Positions 3,344-64,000 of a stretch of DNA of 64,000 nucleotides are shown here, one piece after another (position 1 is the stretch's first letter; each line of letters opens with the position of its first letter). Position numbers and translations under genes: made by a program. The stretch is taken from contig OZ024741.1 in assembly GCA_964016885.1 (NCBI GenBank), forward strand, positions 382,044,001-382,108,000, in the 5' to 3' direction. This stretch comes from Eledone cirrhosa. Taxonomy: Eukaryota. The notes under the pieces were generated by a model. It saw nothing but the letters and a program-made list of their open reading frames with translations, was not told the origin of the DNA and did no database searches.

Positions 3344-3367
3344 GTTGGTGGTGAAGAGAACAGGCAC

Positions 3368-5031
3368 TTACCTCTCTGCGTCCCGGGTATCGGGCTGCAC
3401 AATTTCCATGAGGGTGGGGGACGAGTTGTTGGGTGGGATGGTTGTTTGTGGAAGTGTGGGGGCATCGGTGTGTTGTGTGGTTGGGGTGTTTGGAGTTGTG
3501 TGGGTGTGAGGGAGGGGGTCGGGAAGTTTTTAGGAGAACACGAAATGGGCCCGGGGGGGGGGGGTACGTCCTCTTTAAAGTTGTTTTTTAGTGTTTAATG
3601 TGTCCTCTGGGACCTTAATCATTTTGAGGTGGGGGAAATCCCCTGCCTGGGTGAAGTTAGGCCCTTGGATTTTTACTAAATTGTTGTTGTACACAATGTT
3701 TAGCAGGCTTTTATTTATTGTGTTTATGTATGTGTATGCATGTTTTTGTTTTTGTGTGGTATTTTTTGTTTGCTGTTGTTGTGTACTCTTTTGTGTTGGT
3801 GTCTGTGTTATGTTTTGGGGAGGGGTTGTTTTCATTTGTGTGCCTGAGGTGTGTTTTTGCTTTTTTTTCTGTTGATTGTGTGGAAGTGCTCCTCCTCGTC
3901 TGACGACGAACGAGGGTCTTCTTCCGCGTTAGAGGGGAGGGGTAGATTTCCGGGTTGTGTTTGCGGTGCGGGTGTTTTGGAAATTGTTTTTTTTTTTACT
4001 GGGGGGATGGGTTGGATATTGTTTTGTTTTGGTTTGAGCTGTGGTTGTTGTTTTTGTAGTGGTGGTTGTGGTGATTGTGTTGGTTGTGCAGTTGTTGGTG
4101 GTGTAGGGAGGATTGGGGTTTTCTTATTAAGTTGAAGAGAGACAGCCCTCAGGTGACCTCTGGCTCCACAGAGGTAACACGAGGGCCGCCTACCATCAAC
4201 GGTAATGTTGATAAAAGTTTCATCATCCAGTATGACGCGTTCAGGGATCTGGGCGATTCTTTCGGGCCTCATTTGAACTACAAGTTCGAGGCTCGTTCCA
4301 CTGAACGCGTCACCCGAGGCCTTTCCCATGGATATTAGTGTGTTATCGTCTAGGTTCAGGAAACCTGTCAATACCCACCATATGTCCATAATCGGAAAAA
4401 TGGTGTGAATTTTTATTTTTTGTGTCCTTCTACCCATGTACGTAGGGTAGAAGGTGTATGCGGTGGATGTGATTGGTTTTATGGACAGTTTCACTGCTGT
4501 GTCCCTGTCCTTCATGAGAATGGATAGACTCCCGCAGAGTCTATCCTTCTGAATGAATATGATGTCTTTCATGACATCTTTTAAAACCAGCTCTATCTCA
4601 CCCTGTGATAGTTGAGCTGGTTTTTTGCATTTGTGTGAGACTGTTCTAAACATGACAATGTTTAGGAGTCTCTGGCTTTTTAGTTCCGAGGGGGAGTGGA
4701 TCGAAAATGATTCATTTTCCCCGTACACTATGTATTTTTTGGCATCTGCCAGTAGCTCCTGCGCTTTGCTTATATCTACTGGCAGATAGTCGGGGGTTTT
4801 CCTTGCCGTCTGGGCGAAGGAGACCTTTTCCTTGTTTGTGTTGCTGTTTTAGTTAGTGGAGTTGTTGTTATCATTGTTGTTGTTATCCCTGTTATTGGTC
4901 TTGTTGTTGTTGTTATTGTTATTGTTGTTGGTGTTGTTTTCGTTCGTAGCATTGTTGTTGTTGTTGTTGTTGCTGGTGCCGCTGGTTGTGTTGGTTTTGT
5001 TCATTGTTTGACACTTTTGTTTTGTTGCCAT
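3368..5031 (-). pseudogene. Tx1 copy 1 ORF1 (gag-like), frameshifted
   Basis: ORFs 4849-5031, 3832-4728 and 3575-3835 are collinear with copy 2 ORF1; it ends MEIVQPDTRDAER*. Confidence 0.85.
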
Positions 5032-5416
5032 GGCAACGTCAAGTTGTCGGTCAGCAGGTGGAGAAAATCCTTCCTCTGATTGACCTTTGTCTTTGACATC
5101 TGCTACTATGAGAGTGGCAGGAGAAAGCTGTAAGCATATCTACCCCTTTCCCCCTTCGAAGTTGGTGAAGAAGATTCAGCCATTTAAAAAAAAAACTGTT
5201 AGCTTTTCAAAAAAAAAACTTTTTGTTAACTATTTCGCCTAAAGGCGTAGACTATTTTGAAAGAACTGACCAGATCAAAATTTGACCTGGCAGTCCCTCT
5301 ACAAAATGGTACAAAAATGAAAGTTTACAGTCAAGAATTTCTATAGAAATTTAAGCAGAACTTATTCAGCAAATTTCACGCGTGTGACCATCCCAGATAT
5401 ATATAGAGATAGATAG

Positions 5417-21245: not shown

Positions 21246-21532
21246 AAATTAGAAAATAGAATAGCTTTCACCGTATTTTTGACTAAATACATTTTAGCCT
21301 GATAATGGGGTTTAGAACCCTCAGATAAATGGAAAAAGATGAGTATTGATGTACATGGGAGTCGAACCCAGATCTTTGGTTATCCAGACCACTGTGCTAC
21401 CATTAAACCAACACATCACTCATGTACATCAATACTCATCTTTTTCCATTTATCTGAGGGTTCTAAACCCCATTATCAGGCTAACATTTCTTTAGTTAAA
21501 AATACGGTGAAAGCTATTCTATTTTCTAATTT
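21246..21532. mobile_element. Fold-back element with ~115-bp inverted arms around a tRNA-like head
   Basis: 21246-21362 is the reverse complement of 21418-21532. The element lies between (TA)n tracts. Confidence 0.85.
21347..21417 (-). other. tRNA-like sequence (SINE-type Pol III head, not a bona fide tRNA call)
   Basis: GATGTG acceptor pairs with TACATC. A box TGGTTTAATGG, anticodon arm TGGT-CTGGATA-ACCA, T arm TGGG-TTCGACT-CCCA, and TTTTT about 10 nt downstream. Confidence 0.7.

Positions 21533-25153: not shown

Positions 25154-25156
<3 letters not shown>
23841..25156. repeat. Partial tandem of a 610-bp unit between (TA)n tracts
   Basis: ATATAGTAGAATAATCGAG starts at 23841 and 24451. The copies are near-identical over ~490 bp; a third copy starts at 62937. 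Confidence 0.9.
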
Positions 25157-25229
<73 letters not shown>

Positions 25230-25341
25230 TAAGAGGAATTCCAACTTTGTCTGATTTACTCGTTTTATTTACAATCCTTTAAAATTTATAATGGTATTAT
25301 AATGAAATAGTATGATAGAATATTAAATTCTAAGTGTTAAT

Positions 25342-25380
25342 TGAACAAGTACTTTCATGCTTTCGCAATCTTCAGGTTCA
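25342..25380 (-). ncRNA. Hammerhead ribozyme (inverted PLE-A pLTR)
   Basis: Reverse complement of 27430-27468. Confidence 0.8.
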
Positions 25381-27257: not shown

Positions 27258-27400
27258 AAACCAATCAGCTTTAGTAATTCTGTGAAACTACACACTGATT
27301 GGTCGAAATAAAGTTTGCAGGGCTTAGCACTCAGGAGCCACTTTTCCCTGTATAAAATGTATAAAAGGTAGGAAATTTACCCATCTTATTACAGTTGAAA
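27258..27400 (+). promoter_or_regulatory. Putative Pol II promoter in PLE-A pLTR
   Basis: CCAAT at ~27261, inverted CCAAT at ~27298, TATAAAA at 27351 and 27360, Inr-like ACAGTT at ~27391. TATA and ACAGTT are kept in the diverged copy at ~5650-5690. Confidence 0.45.
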
Positions 27401-27429
27401 ATTGCAAACTTGACTGTCACCACATATTA

Positions 27430-27468
27430 TGAACCTGAAGATTGCGAAAGCATGAAAGTACTTGTTCA
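27430..27468 (+). ncRNA. Minimal type I hammerhead ribozyme in PLE-A pLTR
   Basis: TGAAC-CTGAAGA-TTGC GAAA GCAT-GAAA-GTAC-TT-GTTCA, with palindromic stem III. Confidence 0.82.
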
Positions 27469-27672
27469 ATTAACACTTAGAATTTAATATTCTATCATAC
27501 TATTTCATTATAATACCATTATACATTTTAAAGGATTGTAAATAAAAGGAGTAAATCAGACAAAGTTGGAATTCCTCTTATTAATATAATCTTCTATACA
27601 CAATCATACACACCCGTGTATATTTACCTATCTATATATATATATATATATTCCTATTGTGTATATGCCAAC

Positions 27673-30600: not shown

Positions 30601-31208
30601 TAAAAATACCTATACAACAACTTAGGACAACCCAAGGAAGAAGAAACCAAGAACTGGTCATACCATTTATAATGACACACAACCCATGTCACCAGAATAT
30701 CTTCAACACTGCCAAAGCAAACCTACCGATCATTGCTCAAAGTAATGAATTAAAAGGCTTAATCACAGATCGATCTTTGACTCTTAGTAAAAGACAGCCG
30801 AAAAATTTGAAGCAATTACTAACAAAAGCAAAGTTTGACCTTAACAACAAAGATGAATCATTCACTGTATCTAAATGCAATGATAGTCGATACGGCACAT
30901 GTCAATCCATACACACCGGTCAATATATGGAAACAAAAACTGGAAAAATATTCCCAAATGCAAATATGAACTGCAAAAGCAGAAATCTAATTTACTGCAT
31001 TAAATGCCCGAATTGTGAAGAACTATATGTCGGTCAAACTGGAAATGCACTATCGGAACGTGCACGGGTAAACCGTCAACAAATCAGAGACCCAAATGTG
31101 CGTCAGATGTCCCCAAGTAACCATCTAGCAGAAAATTACACAGTCCATGTGAAATCAAGAGAAAAATCAAAGAAAAGAATTTTATTGATAAATTCAAACC
31201 CAAGCTAA
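27673..31208 (+). pseudogene. PLE-A polyprotein with long N-terminal region, RT, Cys linker and GIY-YIG; frameshifted
   Basis: ORFs 27616-28272, 28566-29150 (INLS..LSKGLKFTP) and 29346-31208 (ADKGGAVV, YGLPKVHK, RPII, RYLDD, YVGQT). Confidence 0.9.
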
Positions 31209-31610
31209 ATTAACAATAATAACACTTAGGGCTATTACTTCTACTACCACTATGACTACGACCACTAACAACAACAACAACAACAACTACAACAATAATA
31301 ATAATAATAAAAGTGATGTTGATGGTGTTGATTAATAGAAAATGCTATTTTCATCATTTCTAAAAATAGCAAAACAATTGATGCTTTGGATATGATTAAT
31401 TATTGGTCGTTAGACATGCTCAACCAGCCCTGACGCTTAAACCAATCAGCTTTAGTAATTCAGTGAAACTACACACTGATTGGCCGAAATACAGTTTGCA
31501 GTGCTTAGCACTCTGGAGCCACTTTTCCCTGTATAAAATGTATAAAAGGTAGGAAATTTACCCATCTTATTACAGTTGAAAATTGCAAACTTGACTGTCA
31601 CCACATATTA

Positions 31611-31649
31611 TGAACCTGAAGATTGCGAAAGCATGAAAGTACTTGTTCA
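31611..31649 (+). ncRNA. Hammerhead ribozyme in 3' PLE-A pLTR
   Basis: Identical to 27430-27468. Confidence 0.82.
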
Positions 31650-32022
31650 ATTAACACTTAGAATTTAATAATCTATCATACTATTTCATTATAATACCAT
31701 TATAAATTTTAAAGGATTGTAAATAAAAGGAGTAAATCAGACAAAGTTGGAATTCCTCTTATTAATATAATCTTCTATGCACACCCGTGTATATTTACCT
31801 ATCTATCTATATATATATATATATATAATCTAGCTGTCGTCTGTTCTACAGAGTGGATGTAATTCACTTCGCGCAGAAGTTTTGTTCAAATTTATTGCGG
31901 AAATTTTGTGAGTTCAAATTTAATTTTGATACTATTGTGTAGCTTGACCCCCCGTCTGAACTGTCAGGCGGTGGGTCAGCTCATCTTTACCCCTCCTAGA
32001 GGTGAAAAACCTGTTTTAAGAA

Positions 32023-33974
32023 ATGTTGTGGCAAAAAAATTTCAATCGTCTGACAGAAATGTTAAACGAAGCGAACGAAAATAGTGGTGGGGGGACAGCG
32101 GTAAGAGTTGTAAGCTCGCACGATTTAGTCCCCCCTTCCTTCCCAACTAACGTCATAGAGAAGGAAGGAAAAAATAAAATAAAAACAGACGAATCTGCGA
32201 AGAAAAATGACGAAAACACAAATCTGGACATGGTTTCCAACAACGAAAAAAAAAAATTTGAAAAATTGCATGACAATACTAATACCACAAACAAAGACAC
32301 AACACACACAAAAATAACATTTGAAAATAATACCATAACAGAAAGCAAAGCAGACGACAGAGTCAACAAGATTTCATTTGCACAAACAACAAAGAAATCT
32401 TTGACATATATACCTGAACATATTTCAGATGTGGCACGAAGAATCACAGACGCCAAACAATACATAAGTGAAGGAGAGCATGGTATTTTATCGGTAAAAA
32501 TGCCTCAAGATCTCACCAAAGACATTGAAAGTCGAACGGTCGTGTTCCGCACCATCAACAACACTTCAAAAAAACCTGAACAGCCAACTCAGGCAGATAT
32601 CAAAACAGTACTCACAGAAGTACTTAATGAAACCACTTTCATAAGAAAAGACAGACTGTATGGAAGCCTAGCAATTATTATGAAGAACGAATCGGCGGCA
32701 AAAAAAATGTGCTATGTCACCGATTCGTTCAAATTTTTTTACCTTTTATCCATCTTATATGGGTAAAAGAAGGTAAAAGAACTCAACGCATATGGCTGGA
32801 TGCAATGATGCCAGATGTAGACTACTGCTGGCTCATAGCTGGCTTCATCGATCCAGTGAATGACAACGTGATTTCCATTGGGAAAACCACAGGCAATGCG
32901 TTCAGTGGAACAGGTATAGAGCTGGTAGTGCAAATGAAGCCTGAACGCATCGCCCAAATACCCGACAGAATCCTATTAGAGGGCCACGGGTATATAAACA
33001 TTAGCGTGGAGGGGAGAAGGCCGTCCTGTCATATCTGTGCAGGCAGAGGGCACCTGAAGGCCGCTTGTCCCCAACTCACCAAAAAGAAAACCCTGCTACC
33101 AACACCAGCTCTACCACCACCACAACAACAGATAAACAAACAACCAAACGCAATCCCACCCAACCCGTCCCTCAGTAAAACTACACCACCACCACAACAC
33201 AAACAGTCACAACACATTACCCCAAAACAAAATACAGGCCCACCCAATCCCTCACTCAATAAAACAACACAACCACCGCAGATACAACACACAACACAGT
33301 CTAACATAGTGACATCCATCTCCCCCACAAAGAAAACCAACACGGAAACATTACCAGCAAACATACCTCTTCCCTCCAACGCTGAAGATAACCCAACGAA
33401 TTCGGAGGAAGAAACGGAGTCCTTCAGACAGATTAAAAGGAAAAAAAGAAAACATGTGCAAAACACACAAGGCCAAACAACCCCCACCCAAATCTCAACA
33501 CAATCCAACAAAACAGAAAACACCCCTCCAGCAACAAACAAAACCAAACCTGCCCCTCCCCTCTTCGAAACACTCACGCCATCCGAAAAAAAAATATTAC
33601 ACTATACTTACATCAATAGAAACAATAATAAATTAAATGAACTCATATACAATAATCCTTCGGTACAAACCGAAGGTGTAAACTTTGTTTCTTCAGAAAA
33701 CTACCCACATTAAACATTAATAAAGATCCCAATGAACCTCTACCAAAAACTAAAAAAGGATTTTAAGGAGGACGTAGGACCACCCTCTGTCAAACCCATA
33801 AACCGCGTCCTACTAAAAATCTTTCCCCCTCCCCTTCCCCTCCCCAACACAACTCCAAACACCCCAACCCCACCACACACTGACGACCCCACACCACCAC
33901 AAGACACCCCTTCACCCAACACCCCCGACCCCATGGAAGTCGTGCGACACGAACCCCGGGAAGCGGAAAGGTAG
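32023..33974 (+). pseudogene. Tx1 copy 2 ORF1 (gag-like), frameshifted
   Basis: ORFs 32023-32766, 32709-33713 and 33732-33974, ending EPREAER*. Confidence 0.88.
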
Positions 33975-34007
33975 GTCTCTACACTCTCCTTTGGCTCTGC
34001 CGCCCAC

Positions 34008-37432: not shown

Positions 37433-37647
37433 GTAAAGAAGTAAAGGAGAGGGGAGCACCTTCTCCATGTGCTCCCCGGGCAAAGGATTGCACACTTTTT
37501 CGGGGATGTGTGCAACCCCCATCACGTCCCCTCCCTTTTGAGTTTATTTTCGATTATTTTCATTTTATACCCTTTTTACTCGATTGTATGTAAACTCCCC
37601 CTTTGTATTTGTCCCTTCTTTTTATGCCTTTATGGTAAATAAAGAAA

Positions 37648-37839
<192 letters not shown>

Positions 37840-40189: not shown

Positions 40190-40664
40190 ATCGAGTAATG
40201 ACCGAAGAAATACGATCATGATTCAGGCAGCAGCAATGGGGTTCCTCAGAAGGGTATATAGTGTCACGTTATTTGATAGAGTGCGTAACTCGGAGTTTGG
40301 AGTGTTATTCCAGGTAGAACCACTACTTCTATGAATAGAGAGAACACAGTTCTGACACTATGGACATGTGGTTAGAATATTTTAGAAAATAATCGCTTCA
40401 CCTATTTTACGCGCAAGACAAACCGGCAGAAGACCCAGCGGTAGACCACGAGCAAGATGGTCTGATTACATCCATGAGCTCACTGGTTTCACTTGGGGTC
40501 CAGCTGGACCAGTTGGAGTTAGTTGCTTCTGAGAGGTTCCACAGGAAGGAGTATTTGATGATTTTGACACCATGACCCTCTCAGGTATAAGTGGGTGGAG
40601 AAGAAGAAGAAGAAGAAGAAGAAGAAGAAGAAGAAGAAGAAGAAGAAGAAGAAGAAGAAGAAGA
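40190..40664 (+). mobile_element. RTE-clade LINE 3' remnant ending in (GAA)n
   Basis: IQAAAMGFLRRVYSVTLFDRVRNSE..VEPLLL, YGHVVR and RRPSGRPRARW motifs; (GAA)n at 40598-40664. Confidence 0.75.
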
Positions 40665-41249
40665 ATGCGCATTTAAAAAACTAATGGGTTATTGTCATTC
40701 AGTTTAAAATACTTGATCAGGTCCTTGAATATTTCGTATCGCACACTTTTATCGGATACTTCTACACAATTCGAATATGCTAAGTGTAAAGAGTGAGACG
40801 CTCCTAGGAACGCTTCTAACAGTCTAGAGAATTACGGCCGTCCGGCTCCAGTCAATCTGGGGATAGCCACCAGTCCAAATGCACCAATTTCACTATTGCT
40901 AACGTCCAAGACAAACAACATACGTACTGGGTCCAGGAAAACATCAGACCACGTACATTTATACATCATATTCATCGTTTAGACCTGTTAGCGGGATAGT
41001 TAAGAAGAATAAAAGAGGGACTACTTACCCTCCCGTGTGCTGTTGAAAATTGCGTGCTCTGAGGTGCATATCTTGTAAGATTTCCCTTGAGACCCTCCTT
41101 TAAAAGCCTGCTCATGGAGTGGGGAACCACTCGCGAATGCTTTTTGTCATCACCTAGTGACATTCACTCCATCATTAAAGTTGCTAACACTTTAAATATG
41201 CTGGCACCGAAATTATCTCAATTTCTCTCACTATCTTTACTTCGTGCTA

Positions 41250-41360
41250 TCATGGCCATCTATTGTGAGTTCGATTCCCGAAGCGAGCGATCCGTTTTGT
41301 CCTTGGGAAAGACATTTTATTTCACGTTGCTCCTTCTACCTGGAGTTGCAAACGAAAGAT
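41250..41360 (+). mobile_element. Degraded tRNA-derived SINE (CORE-like)
   Basis: B box GAGTTCGATTCCC followed by TGTCCTTGGGAAAGACATTTTA. Confidence 0.45.
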
Positions 41361-42081
41361 AGTATTAGCAATTGGAAAAACCAATGGAAATATTCTTTCC
41401 TCGGTTCAATTTGACGAAAGTCGATCGACTGTCGATAGTGGAAAGTTCTGATGCTTGTTCAATTGTGGATGCAATGTTATTGCTGTTTTTGTTGCTATTC
41501 TTGTTCATGTTGTTTTTATTGTTCATTTTAGTAATCTGTAGAATTTGATTTGATTTCGGGAATACTATCATTTACATTCTCGTGTTAATTCAATGTTGCT
41601 GCTGCTGTTATCATCGTTATTGTTTTTTATGTGTTATTGTCGTTGCCGTTGTTTTCGCTTCTGCTGTTTTTGAAGTCGGTGTTGCCGCTACTGTTGTTAT
41701 CGCTGCTAGTGTTAATGAAGACTCAATAATGCTGGTGACAGTGTTGAAGTTGGTGGTGTTGTTGTTCTCACTTTTCTCGTATATTTCATTTAAGCTCCTT
41801 CTAGAAGAGGAAACTTCGGTATCTGCCATGATTCTCTTTTAGATTATGGGGTGGAGGTTAAGCCAGATTAAATGCAACTTTAACTCTTTAAAATTATGTG
41901 GGAAAAACGAACTCCATCGGAAGATGGTTAATTTAGACACAGCAATACACAAACATTCCAAACAAAAGGTTTGTATAACCAATGAAAAGTAACAATCTTA
42001 CAGAGTAAAAACTTGGACGGTATAGATTTAAGAAACAAAAACAACAGTAATAATAACAATGATAATGATAAAAAAAAAAAA

Positions 42082-45000
42082 TTCTTTGTTTATTAATCAT
42101 AAGTGTTGACACAAACTATAACATTAAGGACAACACAGGACAATACAAATGGGCATTTCGGCGTGTAAAAAAAAAACAAAAAACAAAAAACAAACAATGT
42201 GTGACAAAAGGAAACGATGAAAAATTCCCAATAGGAAGGAGGCCTCTGAGGGTGGCTCCTGGAGAAACCCACAAGAAAAGCTACGGTTACCCTGACCTAG
42301 GGTAACCGCTAGGGTTTTCCTCCTACAATGCTACATGCACACGATAAGGGTAGGCCCATTCACACGGGCCATTCTTGCCTCTCTCACACACATTTCAACA
42401 AACTGGCTGGAGGTCATCACTTCCCTATCCACCCTGATTTTCCTCTTCAGGTGAAAGCTGAAAAAGTTAATAAGGGCATCACCGAAGAGGAAAGTACCGG
42501 TCCTCAACCCTTTCAGACGTGTCCACCATACAATCTCTTTTACCATGGCAACCAGGCAGATAAAAACTATCTGTCCTTCTCACAATGGACTCAGCTGATA
42601 GCCAGACCCGTTCTTCACGTGACAGCAGGTGTTCGGCATAAATCCACAAATCAGTAATGCTCGGACACTGGACGGGTGCGTGCTGGACGGTTTCATCGTC
42701 CTGTGCGCATCTCGGACGGGCTCGGCTGACGGCACTTCCATGCCAGTAGAGTTTATCCCGAACTGGCAAGGCTCCTCGGTAGCACTGCCAGGGATTTCTG
42801 GAAGTTGTCCAAGGGCCCCGGCCCGAAAGTTCTCCAGGAGAGATTTGCTAGTTGGTTTTCGTCGACCCTTAGAGTCTCCCCAAGGACGTCGTTGCACTTT
42901 CCTTCAACTAATCATGTACGGAAAGCAAAGGTGGAATTTCCAGCGGTTGTATTGCTCGACTGGTCGAGGGCTGTAAGCGCCTGAAGAAGTTCTAGTCTCC
43001 AAACGCTTCTTCTCGGTTTTCGCTTGACCCTGGACTGCAGCTCGACCAAGGAGACAAGCTGGGAAAACATGTGTCTAGCAAAGGGCGACCACACTGATCA
43101 CCGTCGAGGAAGAGCTGGAGATGCCGTAGCCTGAGCGCATGTCTGAGTATCAAGGCCACGGCATGCGCAGCCCTACGCGTGGCGAGTGTTGACAGCAGAT
43201 GGACCGCCTGACGATCGGATCACGTCCCTTCCACAAAAGGCGAAAGAACAAACGATCCACGACGGTCAGGCGGTAGTAGATGACGGACGCGATGTACGCA
43301 TTCGCCCCCTCGGGTCGACCTTTCAGGGATAGCTTCCTCTCGGCCCATTTCTGGGTGAGAGAAAACACCTTGCTCGTGACATCCTCTGTTTTTTTCGGTC
43401 AGCTGGGCCGGATCGAACTAGACCCCTAGCAATTTAACCGGTCCGTCCGTCCAGCGCCCGACAACGGGTTGGGTGACATGGACCTGTCTCTCCAGGTGCC
43501 GAGTTGCAGGCCTACTGATTTTTTCTGGTTGATCATTGCTCCTCTCACTACCTCGTATTCTCTTAGTGTGGTGTTGATTGCCTCGATGTGTTTAGTGTTC
43601 GACACCACTACGCTGATGTCGTCTGCATAAGCTGACACTGTTCCTCCGCATCCTAGTACAGGTGGGATCCCTACCAATTTCCCAAGTTTGTGCAGTAATG
43701 GCTCAAGAGTCAATACGTACAATAAGGATGAGAGAGGACATCCCTGGCGGATCGAGCGCATGATGTTGAACGGTTCCGAAAGGTGACCATTCACTCACAC
43801 CACAGAGCAGACGTCACTGTGCATGGCAGCAATCCAGCCTCTGAAGACAGGCCGAAAGTCAGCTGCTCGTAGGACTGCTGCCAGATAATGCTCAAACCTA
43901 TCGAAAGCTCCCACTGATCTAAATTGATCAAAGTCACACCCGTGCCAGGTTCCCTAGCTACCCTCTCCACGATGTATCGCATGAGGTGGAAGTTGTCAGG
44001 GATGGATCTGTCTGGAATGGCGCATGTCTGCACCTCTTCCACCAGACCACCAACGACGAGTGCCAAAGTCTTTGCTAGCACCTTGGCCAAAATCTTGAAC
44101 TCTGTGTTTAGCAAGGTTATGGGCCTGGAATTAACTATGTTATTCCCTTTGTTCGGATCCTTTCTCAGCTGCGCCACCGCTACTCGCCTCACAGAGCTGG
44201 GAATTATTCCGTTCTTTTGCCAGCTCCAGTAGACGTCCACCAAGAGGCCTCCGAACAAGTCTGGAATCTGTTCGTAAAGTTCACAGGGCAGACCATACAG
44301 ACCAGGCGATTTACCCCTTGTGCAACCAGTCATTGCCTCCCGTACTTCATCAGTTGTTATCGGCTTTTCACAACACTCCACCTCAGTGGGAGAGAGCCGC
44401 GGCAGTCCGTCGAGGTAGGCACTAAAGTGTATCCCTCGATCCGGCGAGCCGCTGCCCCCAACAGCTGAGCGAAGTGTCACTGAAAAGCTTCACACATTTT
44501 CCCGGGATCGAGTAGCATGCGCCCGTCGTGGTCCACCAAATACCGGATCGAGGTTTTGTTGCCACGACGCACCTCCGCCACTCGTGTCCATTGAACGGCT
44601 TTCCTCCCCTCGTGTTTGAGTGCACGCACCCTAGCTCTGATAACGCAGCCTAGGTGATTTGCATTGAAGAATTAGTCAAGGGCCAATTGTGCCGCAATGT
44701 TTACTAAGCGCCTCGTCTAATTTTCTAACTAGTTCTCCCTCTACTCTATTTTTCTCTATTGTTAAAGCCTTATTAAACCTAATGGACTCTATTCTAATCG
44801 CTCTTTTCAGAGCAAACCACCATTTGTTGTTGACGGTGGGCCCTGTCAATGCCGGTTTAACTAATTCGCTAATCCGGTATATGTAGGGCTTGCGCGCTGT
44901 TAATGACGCGTTTAGCTTCCAGTATCCAAGTCCCTGCCTATGAGGCATATCTAAGTGAAACTCACAGATCACGAATTTGTGTTCCGTGCAGTCGACTATT

Positions 45001-48000
45001 TTGAAATGGGGACAGCCTATGCTTAACCTATCTATTTTCCTACAAATACCCCATCTAGATATGATCTGGATGACCCGATGCGGTTTGTCCATGTCCACAT
45101 TGGCCCATTCGGGAAATCCAGACAGTAGAAACCGTCTAATCAGGTTTGCGAGGCTTTTACACCCTCCTCCTCTATTCGCTAATCCCACACAGTCCCAGCG
45201 TGCATCTAAGATCCTGTTCCAATCGCCCACTAACTTCCCCCCGATCCAGGACGGCTGGGAGATGCGTTCACATCGTAGCCACCGGAAGATCGGTGCGAAG
45301 GCTCGTGCTTCGGATAGTCTGGTCTCGCTGATGGCCACCACGTCTATGTTTAGTGACCTGAAGTCGTTGAGCAGGTAGCCCTGCTTCCATGCTGACCCCA
45401 GGCCAAGCGCATTTATGCTGCCTATTCTGAGTGAGGTCATGTTGAAAAGGAGTGGAGAAATATGGGAAATACCACTTACCTTACTTCTCATAGCGGAAGG
45501 ATGGCTTCCCCATCCTTCTGACAGCTTGTGGCCTCCTGCGGAAGGATGTCCCTATAAATCCTCCTGCAGAGTGTTTGTCGGAAATGTCCGATGTCCTTGG
45601 AGAATTTTTGTTTTAGTGTCGTGTACGGTTTCTGTGTGATGCGAGTGATTTGTATGTGTTGAGGTCGTGTGAACTTTTGGGTTGTTGTGTAGTCTTTTTC
45701 TGTGATGCTGGTGTTGTGGTGGATGTAGTGTAATAATTGGTTGTTGTTCAAATTTAATGCTGTGTACTGTGTATCATTTTGGTTGTACGGTTTTGTTGGC
45801 GTTTGTTGTGGGTTTGTTTCTGTTTCGCTTATTGGTGATTTTAGTGGAGTTGGTGATGGCGGTTGTGCGGTTAATGATGGTGATGGTGTTGGTGTTTGTG
45901 GTGATGGGGCTTGTGATGCCGGTGTAGGTGGTGGCATAGCTGTCTTAACTTTTTTGTTTGTTTGCTTATATGTTTCCCCTTGTATTTTTTTTGGAGGGCA
46001 AAGGAAGATGATTTTGGTGGGGGCCTTCATTTTTCCTTTTTCTTTTTTCCTGATACCATTTCCCACTCCGCCTCCTCGTCACAATCTGTCTCTAGTTGGT
46101 TGAGATAGGTCGGAGAGTGGAAAATCCTCCACAGGCGTTAGTTTTTGTTGTGGCGTGGTGGATGGTGGAGGCGATGGCACTAATTCTGGCGCGGTGGGTG
46201 GTGGTGGTGTTGGTTTTGCTACTGTTGCTAGGATTGTTGCTGCTACAATTGCTGCTTATGTTGTTACTACAGTTGTTGCTGACATTTCTGCAGCTGGTGG
46301 TTTTGATGGTGGGTGGGAGAGGTGCCCCCAATCTTTAGCCTGAGGGCAGGAAGCCTTTAGGTGGGTTCCTTCACCACAAACGACATACGTAGGCCTTCTA
46401 CCCTCAACGATTACGGGGAGGCTTCTGCCGTCATTGAGGTCTATCACCTCTGGAATTTCCTGAATGCTTTTTTGGTCGACTTGGATCAGGAGCTCCATCC
46501 CAGATCCGGACCAGTTCTCCTGCTTTTCTTTTGTTACCTCAATTATTTTCGTGTTGGCCTCGATGCCGGTGAGGACAGCAGCCATTAGCCAGAATTTCAA
46601 TGGCCGGCGGAACGTAGGTCACCTTGACCTTCACGAGACTCTGACCACAATAGCTTGGGAGGAGTGTGAACTCGTCACTTCTTAATGGTGCCATGGAGTG
46701 ATCTCTAGTTTCCTGTGAAGTTCCAAAGAACACGTCCACGGTTCCATATTTGGGCCCACGTCTGATGTGGGTTTTTTTTCGCCCAAACATGTCCCAACGT
46801 TTTTGTATCTGGGACTCGGATGCCCGTTCCACTCGGCATGATTTTGTTTTTATCGTCCCATATGATACGGTGCATAGGCATCGATGCTCCATTTTATTAT
46901 ATGGGGAGGGGGGAAGGGGGTTAATCTTTTTTTTACCATTCGCTTGGCTCCATTCAATTCATCCTGGCTTACCTCTATTATTTAGCTTTTCTTGGTTGCT
47001 TTGGCAAATGACACATTTTGTTTTGCGCTGGTGTTGTCGTTGTTGTTGTTATTATCATTGTTGTTGTTGTTGCTGTTGTTGTTATTGTTATTTTTGTTAT
47101 TGTTATTTTTAGTTTCAGTTGTGGTGGTGTCAGTGGTGTTCGGCGTGGAAGAGTTGATTCTGGGTGAATCTATTTCGATGTCACGAGATAATGATTTCAT
47201 TTATTGGCCAAAAGGGCCGACATATAGGGGACAATACAAAAGACTGGGACACTGGGGTTTTACAGAAAAATCAAGTAAACAATATGAATCACAAAAAGAA
47301 ATTAACAATAAAACTACAACAAAAAAAAATTCCCCAATAGGGGGGATGACCACCCAGGCTTCGCTCAGGTACCCCACCAATCCTGAACGACCCGACGCTT
47401 CGAGAGCACCCTGGAAAGCACCCCCTCTCCTCCTCAAATTTACCTACCTACAGCCGCATAACCAGAGTATGTCAACTCACACGGGCCATTCTCGCCACAT
47501 TCACCCACCTTTCAGCAAATGTACTGGGGGGGGGGGGGGGCAGCACTTCTCTCTCCACCCTCACCTTCCATTCCAAGTGAAACTTGAAAAAGTTGATGAG
47601 GGATTGGCCGAAGAGAAACGTGTGTTCAGTCCTTTCAACCTCATCCACCATACAACCTCTTTCGCTTCTGCCAGCAGACAGAGGAAAATTGCCTGCTCTT
47701 CCTCGCCAAAAGAAGGCCGCGGGTGAGATCTTCATTATGGACTCGGCCGAGAGGCAGATCCGTTCTACACGCGACAACAGCTGTTCAACATAGCTCCACA
47801 AGTCAGTAATGCACGGACACTGGACGAATGCGTGCAGAACGGCTTCGTCGCTCTGCGCGCATTTCGGGCAGGTCCATCTGACAGCACTTCCGTGCCTGTA
47901 GAGTTTAACTCGAACCGGCAAGCGAGCGATTTTTGGAAATTATCCATCGTCCACGACTCGAAAGTCCTCCGGTACAGACTGGTTAGTTCGACTTCGTTGA

Positions 48001-51000
48001 CTCCCAGAGCCTCTCTGGGTGCGTCGTCGCACTTGCCCACCACTGATCCTCTACAGAACTCGAGAGTGGAAGTTCCACTGACCGCATTGCCCGCCTGGTA
48101 GGGGGAAGTGAGTGCCTGGCAACATTCCAGATTCCAGTCACCCAGTCTCGGTCTCTTCTTGACCAAGGACTGCAGCTCAGTCAAAGAAACGAGCTGCGGA
48201 AAGGCCCGTGTGACAAACGGTGACCACACCTGTTCACCGTTTAGGCAGAATATCTGGAGATGCCGCAGCCGCAGCCTCATCGCGTGCCTGCGCATCATTA
48301 GCCACGGTATGCCCAGCCCTCCACGTAGAGGGTGCTGGCAGCAGATGGACCGCCTCACCAGCGGACCCTGACCCCTCCACAAGAATTTGAAGAGGAGCCG
48401 CTCCAAGATGGCGAGGCGCGAACGGGGGAAAGGGACGACGGTCAGGCGGTAGTAGATGACGGACGCGATGTACGCGTTCGCCACCTCCGCCCGACATTTC
48501 AGTGATAGCTTCATCCCATCCCATTTCTGGGTGAGACTGGCTACCCTGCCCGTCACCTCGTCCCAATTCTTATCCACCTGGAGGGCTGGCCCGAACCAAA
48601 CCCCTAGCAACTTTACCGGTCCGCCCGTCCAACACTTAACGACGCTGTTGGACGGCATGGGCTTGCCTCTCCAGGTGCCCAGTTGCAAGCCCACCGACTT
48701 TTCCGGGTTAAGTTTTGCTCCAGTCAACCTTTCATATTCCTCCAATAAATTGCCGACCACCTATATTTCTGATGTGTCCGACACCATCACGGTGATGTCG
48801 TCCGCATAAGCCGACACAGCCTTTCCACGTCCCGGTTCGAGCGGGATGCCTTGCAACAGGTCCAGCTTCCGCAGTAAAGGCTCGAGAGTCAATACGTACA
48901 GAAGGGAGGAGAGAGGGCACCCTTCACGGACCGATTGGGAGACCTCAAATGGTTCCGAGAGGTGGCCATTAATTTTAACCATCGAGCAGGTGTTGCTGTG
49001 CATTGCTGCGATCCAGCTTCTGAAGACGGGGCCAAAGCCAGCCGCCTTGAGGACAGCCTCCAGATACCGATAGTCGACCCTATCGAATGCTTTCGATTGA
49101 TCTATGCAGCCGACAAGTGCATCCTGAATCTCAGCTGAAGTAATTGGCCTTTCGCAGCGCCCAGCGTCAGCCGTCGAGAGTTGCGACACCATCGAGGTAG
49201 GGACTGAAGTCCGCCATCATCTCTGACCCGCCGCTTCCCCCGAACAACCGAGCAAAATGTTGGCAAAAGGCCTCACACATCCGCTTGGAATCGCTCAGCT
49301 CGTGTCCGTCTCGGTCTGTCAAAAACCGAATCGTGGTTTTATTACCACGCTACGCATCTGCCACGCGGGCCGATCGAACAGCTTTGGTTCCCCCGTTTCT
49401 TAGAGCACGCGCCTTAGCTCTGACAATGCAACCTTCGTGTTTCACATTGAATGAATGGTCTAATGCCATTCTCGCCGCTAGCACGTCAGTTGCAATTCCA
49501 CTACCAATAGCCTCGTCTAACTTATCTACCAACCCCCCCTCCTTTCTATTTTTCTCTAACGCTACTTCTTTGCTAAACTCTATCGACATTACCCCACCAT
49601 TTATTGTTGACGACTCCCCCGTCGACTTTTTCTTAACTAAATTGTTGACCTAGTCCCTGTAAGCCTACGTGCCGGAAATGACATGTTTAGTTCCAATAAC
49701 CAGGTCCTAACCTACGCGTCTTATCTTGGTCGACCATACAGATCACAAACTTGTGATCTGAATAGGCGACTGTTTCAAAACTTGACAGCTTACACTATTT
49801 CTGTCTATTTTCCTAATGAATATCCTGTCTATATACGATCTAGATGACCATATGCGGTTAGCCCAGGTCCACACTGGCGCATTAGGGAAATCAAGTCGGT
49901 ACCTGTCAGACAGTTGGAACTGGCTGATCAGGTTCTTGAGGTTTTTGCACCCCACGCTCCTATCGGATACTCCCACACTGTCCCAGCGTGCGTCTAAGAT
50001 GCCGTTCCAGTCCCCCACTAACAGTAAAGGGTTAGACGTGCCCAGAAAGGCTTCCAGGCGTCTAAAGAGGTCCGGCCGTCCTGCCCCAGTAGGAGCATAG
50101 ACGGCCACCAGTCTAAAGGCACCAGCTTCGTTATTGTTCACGTCCAGGACCACCAACTTCCCGTCCGGGTCCCGGAAGATCGACCTCACCTCGAGATCCA
50201 GGCCTTTCCTAAAGAGCACTGCCACCCCGCCTCCTATTCCCGGCCGGCTATCAGATGCAAAGATCTGATAGTCGTCGAAAATGGGGGCTAGTGCGCGCGT
50301 GTCGGAAATCCTGGTCTCGCTGACGGCAATTACATACATTTATAGAGACCTGAGATCATTGAGCAGATGACCCTGTTTCCAGGACGATCCCAAGCCTCGA
50401 ACATTTAAACATCCTAATCTTAATACGGCCATGTTGGAAGGTTAAAAGAGAGAGAGGAAATGTTTACTTACCTTCCGGGCTCTTGTGAAGGTCGGGTAGT
50501 TCGACCTCCATAGTTGGTGGGGTTTCTTTTGGGAACCCCTTTAAAAGTCTTGAAGTTGGTTTTACGTCCGGGGTTCACACGTCCCGAGGAAATCTCTCTC
50601 GTATTTCTTTGTATAATTCGATCGACATTCGCACCAGAACCAAATCTTCCGGCACGCGAAATTTGGTCGATTTAAAACTTTCCCCCTCTTTTTGTATATT
50701 TTCACTTCTTGCCACGAGGGTAATCAGTCCCTTGTTGGTCCTCCCGACGAGCACGAAGTTTTGTATGTTTTGTTGGTGTGATTTTATTTGTTTGCGTGGC
50801 TGTGGTTGTGATGGTTTTGGTGGTGTTGTTTCGGTTGTGTCTGTGTTTGTTGTGAGTGCGGTGTGTGTGGTTTCAGATGTTTGTGTGTATATTTGTTCTT
50901 ACGTCTGTTTAGGTTGTTTGCGTAATGGTGGTTTTGATGTTGGTGTTATTGGAGAGATGTTTGCGTGGGTGGTGTCTGCGTTTTTTATTGTGGGTGATTT

Positions 51001-51670
51001 TGTGCTTTGTTGAGTTTCCTTTTCTTTTTGTGTTTCCTTTTTTGTATTTTGGGGGATTTTGGTTTTCCCTCATCTTCACTACTGGTAGATGAGGGGTCTG
51101 TGTCTGTAACTGTGTCTGTATGTATGTTCATGGTTTTATTGGTGTGTGTATTTTTGGGGGGAGAGGGAATTTGGATGTCACGAGATAATAATTTATTTTT
51201 GTTTCTGTTGTCAATGTGGTGGTGGTGGTGATGGTGGCATCAGTGGTGTTGGTTGTTCTTTTTGACATTGTGGTGGTGGTGGCGGCTATAACACCTGCAG
51301 TTATTGGTAATGGCGGGAAATCCATGCTTGCATGCGGCAAATTAAAATAATTGATACTGGTATTAATTATATTTTCAGTGTTGGCAACCGTGGCAAGGTT
51401 TACAATGGTGGTGGCGGGAGATAATGATCTGTTAGAAGCAGGAGATTTGTAGACCATGTTTTTTTTTTCAAAGAAATATATTATTTGATCGATAAAAGGT
51501 TTAACTTTTGGGCTCAAGGCCCCAATATTATTGAATGTCATCTTCAGAAAGCAATATGTGAACTTATAAACACTTAACAACAAAAATTTTCCATAACTGG
51601 CAATTTGAAACGACTGAAAACAACAAACCTTTGTGGAGCTCACGATAATACGATTTCCTACGTAGGTCAC
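42082..51670 (-). mobile_element. Tx1 LINE copy 3 (42082-47192 plus 51174-51670), full length, interrupted by copy 4, flanked by (TTA)n-like tracts
   Basis: 5' UTR and ORF1 start at 51670-51190, continuing at 47176 across the TSD. Degenerate knuckle YVVCGEGTHLKASC; ORF2 45440-42331 APE/RT fragments; AATAAA near 42092. Confidence 0.9.
47193..51173 (-). mobile_element. Tx1 LINE copy 4, 5'-truncated, nested in copy 3, with internal RT deletion near 49105
   Basis: TSD GATGTCACGAGATAAT at 47177-47192 and 51174-51189. ORF2 runs 50432-47448. ALVGC joins directly to IDQSKAFDRVD. Confidence 0.92.
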
Positions 51671-51700
51671 CAATAATAATAATAATAATAATAATAATAA

Positions 51701-52685
51701 AGAGATCTGAAGGTGGAATAGGTCTTATCAGCATAGAAGACTGTGTTCACATGAAGAAAATCAACCTGCACAAATATGTGACTGACAGTAGGGAGCCGAT
51801 GCTCAAAATTGCAGAAGGAGGTGACAATAGACCAGAGGATGTCCATAAAGGAAATAACAAGGAGAAAGAGCAACCTTCAAGAAACATCCCTTCATAGCAC
51901 CATCTTTAGGAAAAAGGAATTTAGAGGTCCCCAGACATGGAACTGGTTAAAAAGAGGAGACCTTAACAAACCTACAGAACGAATGATATGTGCTGCGCAA
52001 GAGCAAGCCCTCAGAACGAGGTGGGTGAAACACTTATTGACAAGGAGGAGACCAGCTCACTGTGTAGGATCTGTGGAGAGAGAGAAGAGACTATGGCTCA
52101 CATTGTATCCGTGTGTAAACACGTAGCCCAGACTCACTATAAAGGCTGGAGATATGATGTTATAGGCAGGGTGACCCACTGGCATCTATGCAAAGTAAAT
52201 AATTTACCACATTCTGAGAAGTGGTATGAGCATAAGCCAGAGTCGGTGATAGAAAACGATCAGGTGAAGGTGCTGTGGGATTTTAGGATACAGACGGACA
52301 AGAAATTAGAACACAACAGGCCTAACTTGATTGTTTTTGAAAAGGAAAAGAAAAATCGTGCCTGATTGTAGATGTAGCCTGCCCATTTGACACGATTTTG
52401 CAAGAAAAGGAGGGGGAGAAAATTAACCGATACCAGGATTTAAAGTAAGAGTTAAACAGGATTTGGAACTGCAATGAGATCAAGGTCGTCCCGATTGTCA
52501 TAGGAGCACTAGGTACTATCTCTAGGAGTTTCCAAGTATCATTAAAGAAGATTAGTCCAGTCCCGTTTCTTGGAACACTTCAAAGGGTAGGCTTGCTGCT
52601 AACAGCAAGAACCCTTCGATATGTCCTGAATATCTGAGGCTGCAGGTAGCGACTTGATATTCATTCCAACGAACTTTTCAGTTAA
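51701..52685 (+). mobile_element. R4/Dong-clade non-LTR retrotransposon 3' fragment (CCHC plus restriction-like endonuclease)
   Basis: ICAAQEQAL, LCRICGEREETMAHIVSVC, VLWDFRIQTD..HNRP, IVDVACPFD and VPIVIGALG; preceded by (AAT)n at 51672-51700. Confidence 0.88.
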
Positions 52686-52689
52686 TTAA

Positions 52690-53895
52690 CATCAAAAGGC
52701 AGATGCAGATAAAATATATCTCCCTAGGAAATAAGGAGGACGTGGATTAATCCAATTAGATATTGCTTTGAAATATGCAACAATTGGATTACCTACATAC
52801 CTAAGGGAGGTGCATGATTGCATGAGCAAACTCGTTTTGAAACAGAAAGCATCAACAGATCATACTCCATTACAAAAGATGCACAAAGATACAGTAATGA
52901 ACTACACATTTCAGAAGTTCCAATTACTGCTGAAATGAAAAATACAGAAAAGGCAAAGCAAGTAAAAGTAACTGCAAAGAAATAACTGCTACAGGAACTG
53001 GCTAAGAAATGGCAAGAAAAAAACCCTGTAAGGAAAATAACCAGAAAGAGCTAACAATCCTGATGTTGACAACATTTTAACCCATCAGTGGTTGGCATCC
53101 TCTGGACTGAAATCGGAGACTGATGGACTGATTATATCAGCACAAGATCAGTGTCTGCCAACAAAAAATTATCAAGCCAACATAATAAAAACTGGATGCA
53201 ACCCATTATGCCGTGTATGTAAAAATCAACCAGAGACAATTGATCATATAATTTCAATGTGCAGTCCTATAGCTCCAACCGAATATCTAAACAGGCATGA
53301 CAGAGCTGCACAATACATACATTGGATAATGTGTAAGCATTTTTACCTGCCCCATCAAAATAATTAGTGGGAGCATCAACCACCTCCCATACTTGAAAAA
53401 TATCATATCTGAATCTTGTGGAACTTTAGTATCCAAACAGGTCGAAAAATAGACCTAATATAATACTGAATGACTTTAAAAAGAGAGTATGCCTGCTAAT
53501 TGACACGTCCGTTCCAATAGACAAGAATGTATCTATAAAAACATTTGAAAATGAGATAGAAATTGGAAAAATGTGGAAGTTGAGAACTAAAACAATACCA
53601 GTGGTTGTAGGCGTTCTAGGAATGATACCTACGGGGTCTAATGATAACTTATCGTAAATCCCAGGAAACCCGCGTATGGAAGACATTCAAAAGATAGTAC
53701 TAATGGGAACTACCCACATACTAAGGAAGATTCTGTCAATATAATACATCACAAGTCTAAACACCTACAGATGCATGGGTGTGTGTTCTTTCTTGAACAT
53801 GGTGGACCTTGTTGTCTCTTGAGTTCACTGATTGTGACTTGGTGATAACTTGTATGAACATAAAGCAAGATAAATGCAATAATAATAATAATAAT
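52690..53895 (+). mobile_element. Second R4/Dong-clade 3' fragment ending in (AAT)n
   Basis: KADADKIYLPRK*GGRGL, LKSETDGLIISAQDQ, LCRVCKNQPETIDHIISMC, YLNRHD, IPVVVGVLG; (AAT)n at 53878-53895. Confidence 0.88.
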
Positions 53896-61233: not shown

Positions 61234-61869
61234 CTAAGGCGGGTAAAATTCCCGAGATCCATGGACGAGTTCTCTCCAGCGGTCTCTGTCCCTCATTATC
61301 GCTGCCATGTCCTGCATCTCCAACAGACCAGTGTCTGTCCTTAGGGCATCAACATACGTTAACCTTGGTCTTCCTCTTCTAGTGTGTCCATGTAGGGGCT
61401 CCCAAAGGAGTACTGAGTGCAATGTCAATTCTGGATGTCGGTGAGCATGTCCAGCTAACCTCAGTCTCCTCTGTGTCACTTTTGAGCTGACTTTTGGGAT
61501 GCTCTCATACAGCTCTGAGTTTTTCATCCTCAGTGTATACTGATTAATGTTCAGAGCCATCCTCAGCATTCTCGTGTAGCGCCCATCCACCATCTGAGTG
61601 AGTTTTTTGGTCAGTGTCCAAGTCTCAGACCCATACAGCAGCACAGACTCCACTACAGCAATGAAGAGGCGGATTTTCAGGTCTCTACGAAGGTCCGACT
61701 TCCACACCGATCTCAAGCTGTGGCACGCCGCCCAGGCCTTGCTCTTCCTCTCAACCACATCATCTTCCGTATTCCCAATCTTTGCTCCCAAATACAGGAA
61801 GTCCTCAACCAATTCCAGCGGCTTCCCGCCTACATTAGTGATCCCCTCTGGCTTCTCAACATTTATGGG
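61234..61869 (-). mobile_element. RTE-clade LINE 3' end
   Basis: VEDFLYLG, LLYGSETWTL, RRLRLAGH, GRPRLTYVD and DRDRWRELV; ends at a TA tract. Confidence 0.92.
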
Positions 61870-62936
61870 TTAAATAACTACCTTATTCGAGTGGCACCGG
61901 TAAGGTATTGTCAGCCATTGAAAAGAAATATGGAGAGTCGATCTAACAGCACTAGGGTTCTAGCCCCTAATTACACTGTCAAGGAGCAACCTGGTCGTTA
62001 TGACTCTGCTGGCTTAGAGCCACAGAAAGGGCCAGTGGATGATGGATCAGCTGTCTCTGAGACAAATATAAAGAATGCAGTTTTGTCCTGCAGAAGAGCC
62101 ATCAAAATGGGCACTTTGAATGTGAGGACTATTCGGACGCTGGAGAAGAGAGAGGAGTTGGGACATCTGTTCGAGGAGAGTGGTATACAGATACTTGCGA
62201 TCCAAGAAGACAGGATTCTACACGATGAGCCCGTGAGGAGTGTGATGATTGGGAAGAAGAGCCAGCTTATCACTACATCGGCAGTGAAGAACACAACAAA
62301 TGCTGCAGTAGAAGGAGTGGGTTTTGTGTTCAGTGCAAAAACCAATCTGTTGGTGAGGGAAATAATGCCTATCTCCCCGCGAGTGTTGAGGGTGACCTTC
62401 AATGGAAACCCAAGACTGACAGTCATCTCAGCCTATAGTCCAACCGAGGGGGACAGTGATGTGAATGCGGAAGAGTTCCATGAGGAGGTGTGTAGAGCTG
62501 TCAACCCCACTCAGGCACACAATATCCTGCTTGTTTTGGGGGACTTCAATGCACATCTGAGTAAGGAGGGCAGTGAAGATCATTGCTGGTACTTCCATAA
62601 CAACACCAACCGAAATGGAAGACTACTGAGAGACACACTGCTGGAGGCGAACTTGATGGCGACCAACCTAGGGTTTAGGAAGAATCTGGGGAAGATGTGG
62701 ACCTACATCTCAGATATGCACCTGTCCAAGTCCCAGATTGATTTCATTCTGGTGAGGAAAAAGTGGCGGAATAGTGTTCCGAACACGGAACCATACAGCT
62801 ATTTCAGTACACTGGGTAGTGACCACCGGCTTGTTATGAGTGAGGTCCGCGTAAGCTTAAGAAAGAGCAAGGCTCAGCCCCGGAGAACAATATATGGCTG
62901 GGGAGCTTTCAAGGAAGATGATAAGCTACAGGAGAG
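61867..62936 (+). mobile_element. RTE-clade LINE 5' part (APE endonuclease), inverted relative to the 3' end
   Basis: MGTLNVRT, ILAIQE, GVGF, ISAYSPT, LGDFNAH, NRNG, SQIDFIL and SDHRLV; cut at 62936. Confidence 0.92.
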
Positions 62937-63599
62937 GTTCACGATAAACAAAATTCGAGATGAGCGGCAGAGGGCTCCATAATTCAGATAAATCAGAGCT
63001 ATAACTATCGTTAAAATACCGTCACACGTAGAATATGTCTACAATCAACCAAACGACCGAAAAATTGCGATATGGAAGATTCGGGACACTCAGATAAATT
63101 ATCAATAAATCAATAAATCAAATGAATGTAAAAAGCATACCCGGACCCACTACAGAGATGGTATATCCAGCTTCTTGGGTTTCTCTAAATCCTTAAACCG
63201 TCCTCCATCAGCTCACATAAAAATATAAGACTTATAGACGACGGGGGACTGGAGTTTACTTCTTCAACGAGCTTTAGTCCGAACGAATGAAAAGACAAAA
63301 CCCAGGCTGAAAATACGCACAGCGATTTCAGCAAGGGAGATAACCTTTATATCCGCAAAAAATATTCGGGAAAATGTGGAATAACACATATATCACATAT
63401 TTTTTTATGTGTTTGACCCGAATTACTTGGTCGTTTCTATGGCTATGCGGATGACGGTTTAACCATCGTCTCAGTGTGTTTGGCCTTTAACGTATGTTGT
63501 AGCTCTGGTTCGTCAGAATTATTGACCGCTTGCCACACATCTCGGAAGTTGCTTTTCGCTAATTTCAAAGCCGAAATACGATTCTCGCTAATTTATATT

Positions 63600-63653
<54 letters not shown>

Positions 63654-64000
63654 TAAGAGGAATTCCAACTTTGTCTGATTTACTCGTTTTATTTACAATC
63701 CTTTAAAATTTATAATGGTATTATAATGAAATAGTATGATAGAATATTAAATTCTAAGTGTTAATTGAACAAGTACTTTCATGCTTTCGCAATCTTCAGG
63801 TTCATAATATGTGGTGACAGTCAAGTTTGCAATTTTCAACTGTAATAAGATGGGTAAATTTCCTACCTTTTATACATTTTATACAGGGAAAAGTGGCTCC
63901 AGAGTGCTAAGCCCTGTAAACTGCATTTCGGCCAATATAGCTGGTCCAACATGCCGCACCCACCGTCTAAGCAATTTTGTTGACATTATTTTGAAACCAC
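62937..64000 (+). repeat. Duplicate of 24491-25576 (610-bp family, (TA)n, inverted PLE-A pLTR with hammerhead at 63766-63804, truncated RT)
   Basis: Near-identical collinear sequence, including the junction TTCGGCCAAT|ATAGCTGG; runs off the window end. Confidence 0.93.

Follow-up and report, generated by a model that had tools for sequence, protein, structure and literature searches.

Can a long interspersed nuclear element (LINE) dispose of its second open reading frame (ORF) by splicing, and do the two ends of such an intron evolve together? The question is raised by a 64,000-nucleotide (nt) stretch of contig OZ024741.1 from Eledone cirrhosa (hereafter the window, within which all positions are counted), a repeat-rich eukaryotic region where self-comparison revealed four long related element copies and one fragment, referred to as the fifth copy. 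The genome is octopod-like and the copies are L1/Tx1-type LINEs, all of them decayed, whose pairwise identity from the donor to the 3′ end ranges from 63.6 to 80.6%, the latter value being that of copies 1 and 2. An initial annotation had proposed that in copy 4 a shifted 5′ splice site (donor) at the end of ORF1 is matched by a change just past a 3′ splice site (acceptor) about 3 kb away, such that the spliced ORF1 would stop at the same residue count, and had taken this as an argument for selection on the spliced product. According to our analysis, the conserved donor signal at the ORF1 end is a stronger finding than the stop compensation. Judging from sequence, we put at roughly 0.5 the probability that in active elements this donor was on occasion spliced to the AG within the ORF2 stop codon, giving an ORF1-only mRNA.

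All five copies carry the donor pattern RG/GTRRGT (the slash marks the splice point) at the end of ORF1, 28–42 nt upstream of the ORF2 start. Only 16 matches to this pattern occur in the 64 kb on both strands; as 12.5 are expected, it is not enriched window-wide, and the evidence lies in its position. In the alignment preceding the ORF2 start, which is partly anchored by the donor motif itself, 6 of the 8 donor columns are invariant versus 9 of the 94 other ungapped columns. The motif has also been kept across a change of frame, forming a stop codon in copies 1–3 and encoding Gly-Lys in copy 4 and, apparently, in its database relative P0014. Retention in both roles, despite changed flanks, points to constraint at the RNA level, and the phase change described below speaks for the donor more than it does for the acceptor. 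The motif might instead serve translation, without any splicing, as a conserved stop-codon context or as a reinitiation signal for ORF2; its overlap with the ORF1 stop in copies 1–3, at this short distance from the ORF2 start, would suit such a role. However, the motif persists at the DNA level even where Gly-Lys and not a stop is encoded, the bases that do not vary in it match the 5′ splice consensus, and folding of the ORF1/ORF2 junction revealed nothing special (z from -0.12 to 0.26 in copies 1, 2 and 4 and in copy 3). We consider a translational signal very improbable.

The copy-4 donor reads AAG/GTAAGTAA. Its first intron base (50471, reverse strand) lies 40 nt after the ATG of the MEV motif (50511), which places the donor in phase 1, whereas the donors of copies 1 (3371) and 2 (33971) lie 38 nt after the ATG and are in phase 2, just as initially annotated. 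The ORF1 frame had been anchored on the MEV motif as shared with copies 1 and 2. Copy 1 actually reads MEI, but the frame itself is confirmed by database relatives. A profile search of 1.84 billion proteins with the ORF1 C-terminal domain yielded nine relatives, which with one additional cluster member gave 10 tails (the splice phases of these proteins were deduced from amino acids). P0020 aligns with copy 4 without gaps over 56/56 residues, through MEVELPDL up to the split Gly codon, and MEVE is found in the same frame in P0012, P0013 and P0021.

Phase 1 might nevertheless have arisen by the loss of one base after insertion, from a 41-nt phase-2 form, leaving nothing to compensate; this explanation overlaps the others considered here and is not exclusive of them. 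Given nine frameshifts in about 2.9 kb of copy-4 ORF2, the chance of a decay frameshift within the 40 nt is 0.12. The donor of the fifth copy does lie 41 nt from the ATG (phase 2, like P0020), and its tail, QQHTGG-stop, is closest to that of P0020 (QQHPEG-stop); P0017 also ends in G-stop. In addition, the R-stop endings of P0013 and P0021 (both GKPAR-stop, compatible with either phase) are expected from phase 2 as well, and phase 2 is equally compatible with the copy-4 exon. On the other hand, unspliced copy 4 stops exactly after GK, and P0014, an intact ORF1 of 603 residues, likewise ends in GK-stop. P0012 has GE followed by a spacer-like peptide leading into QHG, its ORF1 and ORF2 being related in frame as they are in copy 4; the -2 and +2 events that a frameshift-aware alignment puts in its tail produce no net frame change relative to copy 4. 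The fifth copy, for its part, has a second stop like that of copy 4 despite its 41 nt and requires at least one frameshift of its own nearby. As for the remaining tails, the G-stop of P0017 and P0020 could reflect a phase-2 donor, splicing, decay or truncation of the contig, P0019 shows a weak GR, and P0015, P0016 and P0018 are uninformative on phase. On balance, phase 1 in copy 4 is in our judgement likely to be genuine, and it is probably a trait of the copy-4 lineage; loss after insertion appears doubtful. Past N-G, purine-coded residues abound in the ORF1 tail of P0019 (O. sinensis LOC118765946, XP_036364761.1), in contrast to the pyrimidine-rich spacer, a hint that this gene model may be spliced after N-G.

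At the other end of the putative intron, the ORF2 stop codon is TAG in all three copies with a 3′ end (copies 2, 3 and 4), and its AG is the candidate acceptor. Copy 1 breaks off within ORF2 near position 630 and, lacking a 3′ end, has no acceptor. By a self-made acceptor score, which is crude and uncalibrated, the ORF2-stop AG ranks 1/253, 7/241 and 4/218 among the AGs of copies 2, 3 and 4, and it tops the 47 AG columns common to them. The predicted spliced tails comprise 1, 7 and 2 residues, respectively.

Besides the lack of donor enrichment and the anchoring of the donor alignment, several observations weigh against joining the donor to this AG. The pyrimidine content of the acceptor does not exceed that obtained by resampling synonymous codons (P = 0.19, 0.25 and 0.16; combined about 0.14), and ORF2 relatives end in similar residues. 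Therefore, the pyrimidine tract may stem from the protein. There are stronger AGs elsewhere in copy 3. Out of 21 ORF2 relatives, 10 terminate where the copies do, with 6 distinct tails among them, 9 stop short of this end, and P0005/P0031 extend 29 residues beyond it. Five junction probes for an intron-less copy in the window gave no true match, and no further 3′ untranslated region (UTR) copies were found there. Copy 3, finally, breaks the exact-stop rule discussed below.

These data could also be accommodated by a real U1 donor that is not paired with the ORF2-stop AG, acting to block early polyadenylation or to retain RNA in the nucleus, or splicing to different acceptors, either within the 3′ UTR or in exons of the host; what follows the stop would then be incidental. 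Such an explanation would account for strong donor conservation alongside acceptor support no greater than coding needs. It also agrees with T-rich 3′ UTR AGs that score equally well or better in copies 3 (42259) and 4 (47314), and a precedent is U1 suppression of early termination in the EVD element, as described in the accessible text of PMC5580714. However, the ORF2-stop AG is the top shared candidate, the stop codon is TAG in three of three copies, and the tails are short in all three. An unpaired donor thus seems unlikely, and splicing to the ORF2 stop remains our preferred reading. Soon after the ORF2 stop, the 3′ UTRs contain hairpins (37445-37480, +; 42280-42312, -; 47390-47430, -), with fold z-scores of -2.55 in copy 2, -1.76 in copy 3 and -0.38 in copy 4.

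Does the sequence after the stop then compensate for the donor phase? The ORF2 stop is followed by GTAGGTAA in copy 4 (47447-47440) and by GTAA in copy 2, the letters given in the initial annotation. It had named copies 1 and 2 as the comparison, but with copy 1 lacking a 3′ end, copy 4 is really compared with copy 2 only. Unspliced copy 4 ends in GK-stop and, joined to 47447, would end in GR-stop, 15 residues from M both ways; copy 2 ends in R-stop whether spliced or unspliced, 13 residues from M. The proposed equality of residue counts thus holds within copy 4 and fails across copies. Relative to copy 2, the copy-4 change is a single 4-nt tandem duplication, GTAG, after which both copies continue with GTAAA, a further seven bases and then AGGAGAGGGG. 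In phase 1, an exon of the copy-2 type would add 53 residues, and the duplication reduces this number to two. However, GTAGGTAA runs straight into a stop in phase 2 as well and, because of this, does not single out phase 1.

Copy 3 had been left out of the original comparison and does not fit as read, since its exon, starting with CATTG, would give a tail of seven residues in phase 2, not one. In phase 1 it would give exactly two residues, and the chance of a frameshift within 60 nt is 0.22. Because its phase is uncertain, copy 3 neither supports nor firmly refutes the stop rule. Taken against donor phase, the rule fits two of the three copies, the third not as read, and there is one informative change. 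As for chance, a phase-1 stop occurs exactly two codons in at 45 of the 638 YAG/G sites of the window (0.07) and within two codons at 71 of them (0.11), while a phase-2 stop arises unaided at 35 of the 61 YAG/GTA sites and with any GTAR start. The 3′ UTRs of copies 4 and 2 differ by several other indels, too. With a single event and a chance of about 7–11%, the case for compensation is weak.

The direction of the GTAG change is the one compensation predicts, but a regenerated donor or slippage fits equally well. AG/GTA followed by G or A after the ORF2 stop could be a second or regenerated donor of the recursive type, with the phase-2 stop coming automatically from GTAR, as the YAG/GTA counts illustrate, and with the duplication reflecting slippage or donor strengthening. 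Positions 47442-47449 of copy 4 fit the donor pattern, and the ORF1 donor of this copy, GTAAGTAA, contains a 4-nt tandem repeat too. Yet no GT follows the copy-3 stop, and no downstream acceptor column common to copies 2, 3 and 4 comes near the top rank, so we regard a second donor as improbable. Tandem in-frame stops behind ORF2 were also considered as the cause of the post-stop sequence and rejected, the next in-frame stop being 3, 68 and 52 codons on in copies 2, 3 and 4. Compensatory selection is, in our judgement, a possibility rather than an expectation, and the claim alone adds little until subfamily data exist.

From the observed motifs, frames, positions and tails, we infer U1 use, acceptor choice and purpose as follows. 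Active elements would have carried a 5′ splice site that U1 recognises, placed within the final one or two codons of ORF1, as its conservation suggests. This donor would sometimes have been spliced to the AG in the ORF2 stop codon, removing ORF2 as one intron of 3.0–3.5 kb and leaving an mRNA for ORF1 alone, which would stop shortly beyond the junction and have a 3′ UTR of about 200–250 nt. Unspliced RNA would presumably have provided ORF2p and served as template when new insertions were made; copies 2, 3 and 4 all keep the putative intron. The donor of the copy-4 lineage would have moved to phase 1, and the GTAG duplication, which would keep the spliced ORF1 tail at two residues, may be weakly selected, one event being inseparable from chance.

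Copy 4 (Table 1) is best read as a 5′-truncated insertion nested in the ORF1 of copy 3, because the ORF1 N-terminus upstream of it, with a DFPPL motif common to P0014 and P0019, and the SFA motif into which the sequence runs on downstream both belong to copy 3. The same is true of the ORF1 start at about 51457-51190. An alternative, internal deletion within the ORF1 of copy 4, was dropped in favour of 5′ truncation with target-site duplication. Copy 4 is dead: besides the nine frameshifts, its ORF2 contains 3–4 stops and a deletion of about 133 codons. The putative intron, composed of spacer and ORF2, amounts to 3,024 nt.

Table 1. Coordinates of the element copies and of their putative splice signals in the window
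Feature	Position	Strand	Remarks
Copy 4, 5′-truncated decayed L1/Tx1-type LINE	47200..51168	-	inserted in 5′ region of copy-3 ORF1
Likely target-site duplication, 5′ side	51169..51199	-	31 nt, 87% identical to 3′ copy
Likely target-site duplication, 3′ side	47172..47202	-	
Copy-4 ORF1 C-terminal domain and tail	50464..50766	-	single frame, one internal TGA, ends MEVELPDLHKSPEGK-stop; relatives P0012, P0013, P0014, P0020
Copy-4 donor-like site AG/GTAAGT	50466..50473	-	phase 1; first intron base 50471
Copy-4 pyrimidine-rich spacer, donor to ORF2 ATG	50433..50471	-	39 nt
Copy-4 ORF2	47448..50432	-	endonuclease, reverse transcriptase, zf-RVT region
Copy-4 ORF2 stop codon TAG	47448..47450	-	AG = candidate acceptor
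GTAGGTAA after copy-4 ORF2 stop	47440..47447	-	copy-2 sequence plus GTAG tandem duplication; with preceding AG also fits donor pattern
Copy-4 3′ UTR	47200..47447	-	ends in AATAAA (47205-47200)
Copy-1 donor-like site AG/GTAAGT	3366..3373	-	phase 2; copy without 3′ end
Copy-2 donor-like site AG/GTAGGT	33969..33976	+	phase 2
Copy-2 ORF2 stop TAG, then GTAA	37430..37436	+	
Copy-3 donor-like site AG/GTAAGT	45474..45481	-	phase 2 as read; in-frame TGA just upstream, phase uncertain
Copy-3 ORF2 stop TAG, then CATTGTAG	42323..42333	-	
Fifth copy, heavily deleted	40660-41900	-	ends at TTC repeat; carries same donor motif; absent from initial annotation
Fifth-copy donor-like site GG/GTAAGT, then AG	41023..41030	-	phase ambiguous

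The ORF2 domains (endonuclease, reverse transcriptase (RT) and zf-RVT) and further traits place the copies with the L1 group. An N-terminal apurinic/apyrimidinic-type endonuclease followed by RT is present in copy 4 (Pfam Exo_endo_phos, E = 7e-13; RVT_1, E = 2e-13), a C-terminal cysteine-rich region is represented by zf-RVT in copy 2 and in the relative P0002, and there are a separate upstream ORF1, target-site duplication and 5′ truncation. The best match of P0002 in the PDB is human L1 ORF2p (E about 1e-21; R2, about 1e-12). A CCHC zinc knuckle in ORF1 is a Tx1-clade feature, and target-sequence preference is frequent in this clade. A CCHC motif can be seen in copy 2, copies 1 and 3 have a degenerate version, and in P0014 Pfam zf-CCHC scores E = 0.069 only, below the cut-off. 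The Tx1 label, taken over from the initial annotation, is plausible. TA repeats adjoin copy 2 on either side and copy 1 on its 5′ side (31800-31830, 37625-37835 and 5395-5425), which suggests a TA-microsatellite target preference in the copy 1/copy 2 lineage; copy 4 has none. Relatives with a species name belong to Argonauta hians, Octopus sinensis and O. bimaculoides, and the accessible texts of PMC13282606 and PMC8967140 report LINE/L1-Tx1 families in Octopus. Word-based searches recovered no ORF1 homologue among 2,780 candidates or among 8,000 scored sequences (lengths 260–2,000 only), and the ESM Atlas gave no usable match to the ORF1 C-terminal domain. The ORF2 relative P0005/P0031 is filed under the name of a Herbaspirillum metagenome-assembled genome and is probably eukaryotic contamination. 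Scans for contaminating copies in bacterial and archaeal genome contigs confirmed none of 364 pattern matches in one case and gave no matches in the other.

Other repeats surround these copies. Copy 1 is cut by a sequence at 1-630 (-) with coding capacity for a CCCH-like zinc finger and, at a later point, for an apparent endonuclease-domain start (by eye); it is probably a different LINE. Three RT-element copies, 90–95% identical and Penelope-like by eye, lie at 5397-7514, 25512-27651 and 29163-31822, and another long RT element at 16704-19985. Next to AAT repeats at 51700-53750 (+) are two neighbouring decayed element ends, which by eye we take to resemble R4/Dong-type 3′ ends. There is an endonuclease ORF at 61519-62982 (+), and a 1.1-kb stretch is present twice (24491-25576 and 62937-64000) with 97% identity. 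The sole Rfam match, tRNA-like (37 bits), is at 21347-21417 (-) and is possibly the head of a short interspersed element.

Like L1-group/Tx1-clade LINEs, the window copies have two ORFs, the first with a putative zinc-knuckle-like motif and the second encoding endonuclease, RT and zf-RVT domains, and they show target-site duplication as well as 5′ truncation. What sets the window copies apart is the conserved donor at the ORF1 stop together with the candidate acceptor at the ORF2 stop. A parallel is offered by LTR (long terminal repeat) elements. According to the accessible text of PMC5580714, a spliced intron spans all of POL in Drosophila copia, and plant Ty1/Copia elements produce a spliced GAG (shGAG) RNA under U1 control. 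Optional splicing there yields an mRNA for the structural protein alone, with a stop shortly past the junction, and of this strategy the window copies share a conserved donor where the structural ORF ends, in five of five cases. As far as that text goes, however, copia and Ty1/Copia elements have one gag-pol ORF in which splicing creates the stop, whereas ORF1 of the window LINEs has its own stop and splicing is putative. Functional donors and acceptors within LINE RNA are known from human L1 (SpIREs; PMC5860796, accessible text); those events lie in the 5′ UTR and ORF1, and an intron covering just ORF2 is not described in that portion of the paper. HAL1 half-L1 elements, ORF1-only L1 derivatives, encode only ORF1p (PMC5753468, accessible text), and a retrotransposed spliced RNA of the window LINEs would look alike; unlike HAL1, no ORF1-only copy was found in the window. 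The main texts of two octopus papers (PMC13282606 and PMC9115989) contain neither ‘splic’ nor ‘intron’. Full-text literature searches, with most subscription journals and Repbase Reports outside their coverage, did not turn up any LINE described as having an intron across ORF2, which does not establish that none is in print.

LINEs need far more ORF1p than ORF2p, and the usual view is that the difference arises from inefficient ORF2 translation from one two-gene RNA. That the two ORFs of human L1 are translated unequally is stated in the accessible text of PMC9115989. As a tentative extension of our reading, the ORF2 of an octopod L1/Tx1 lineage may lie wholly inside a spliceosomal intron with a stop-codon acceptor. 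Splicing would then set the ORF1p:ORF2p ratio, junctions 3 kb apart would co-evolve so as to keep the ORF1 C-terminus, and spliced RNAs would offer a direct route to half-L1 elements. If true, a LINE that drops ORF2 by splicing would have converged on the copia strategy, host splicing factors would gain a switch over element activity, and an origin of ORF1-only elements would be suggested.

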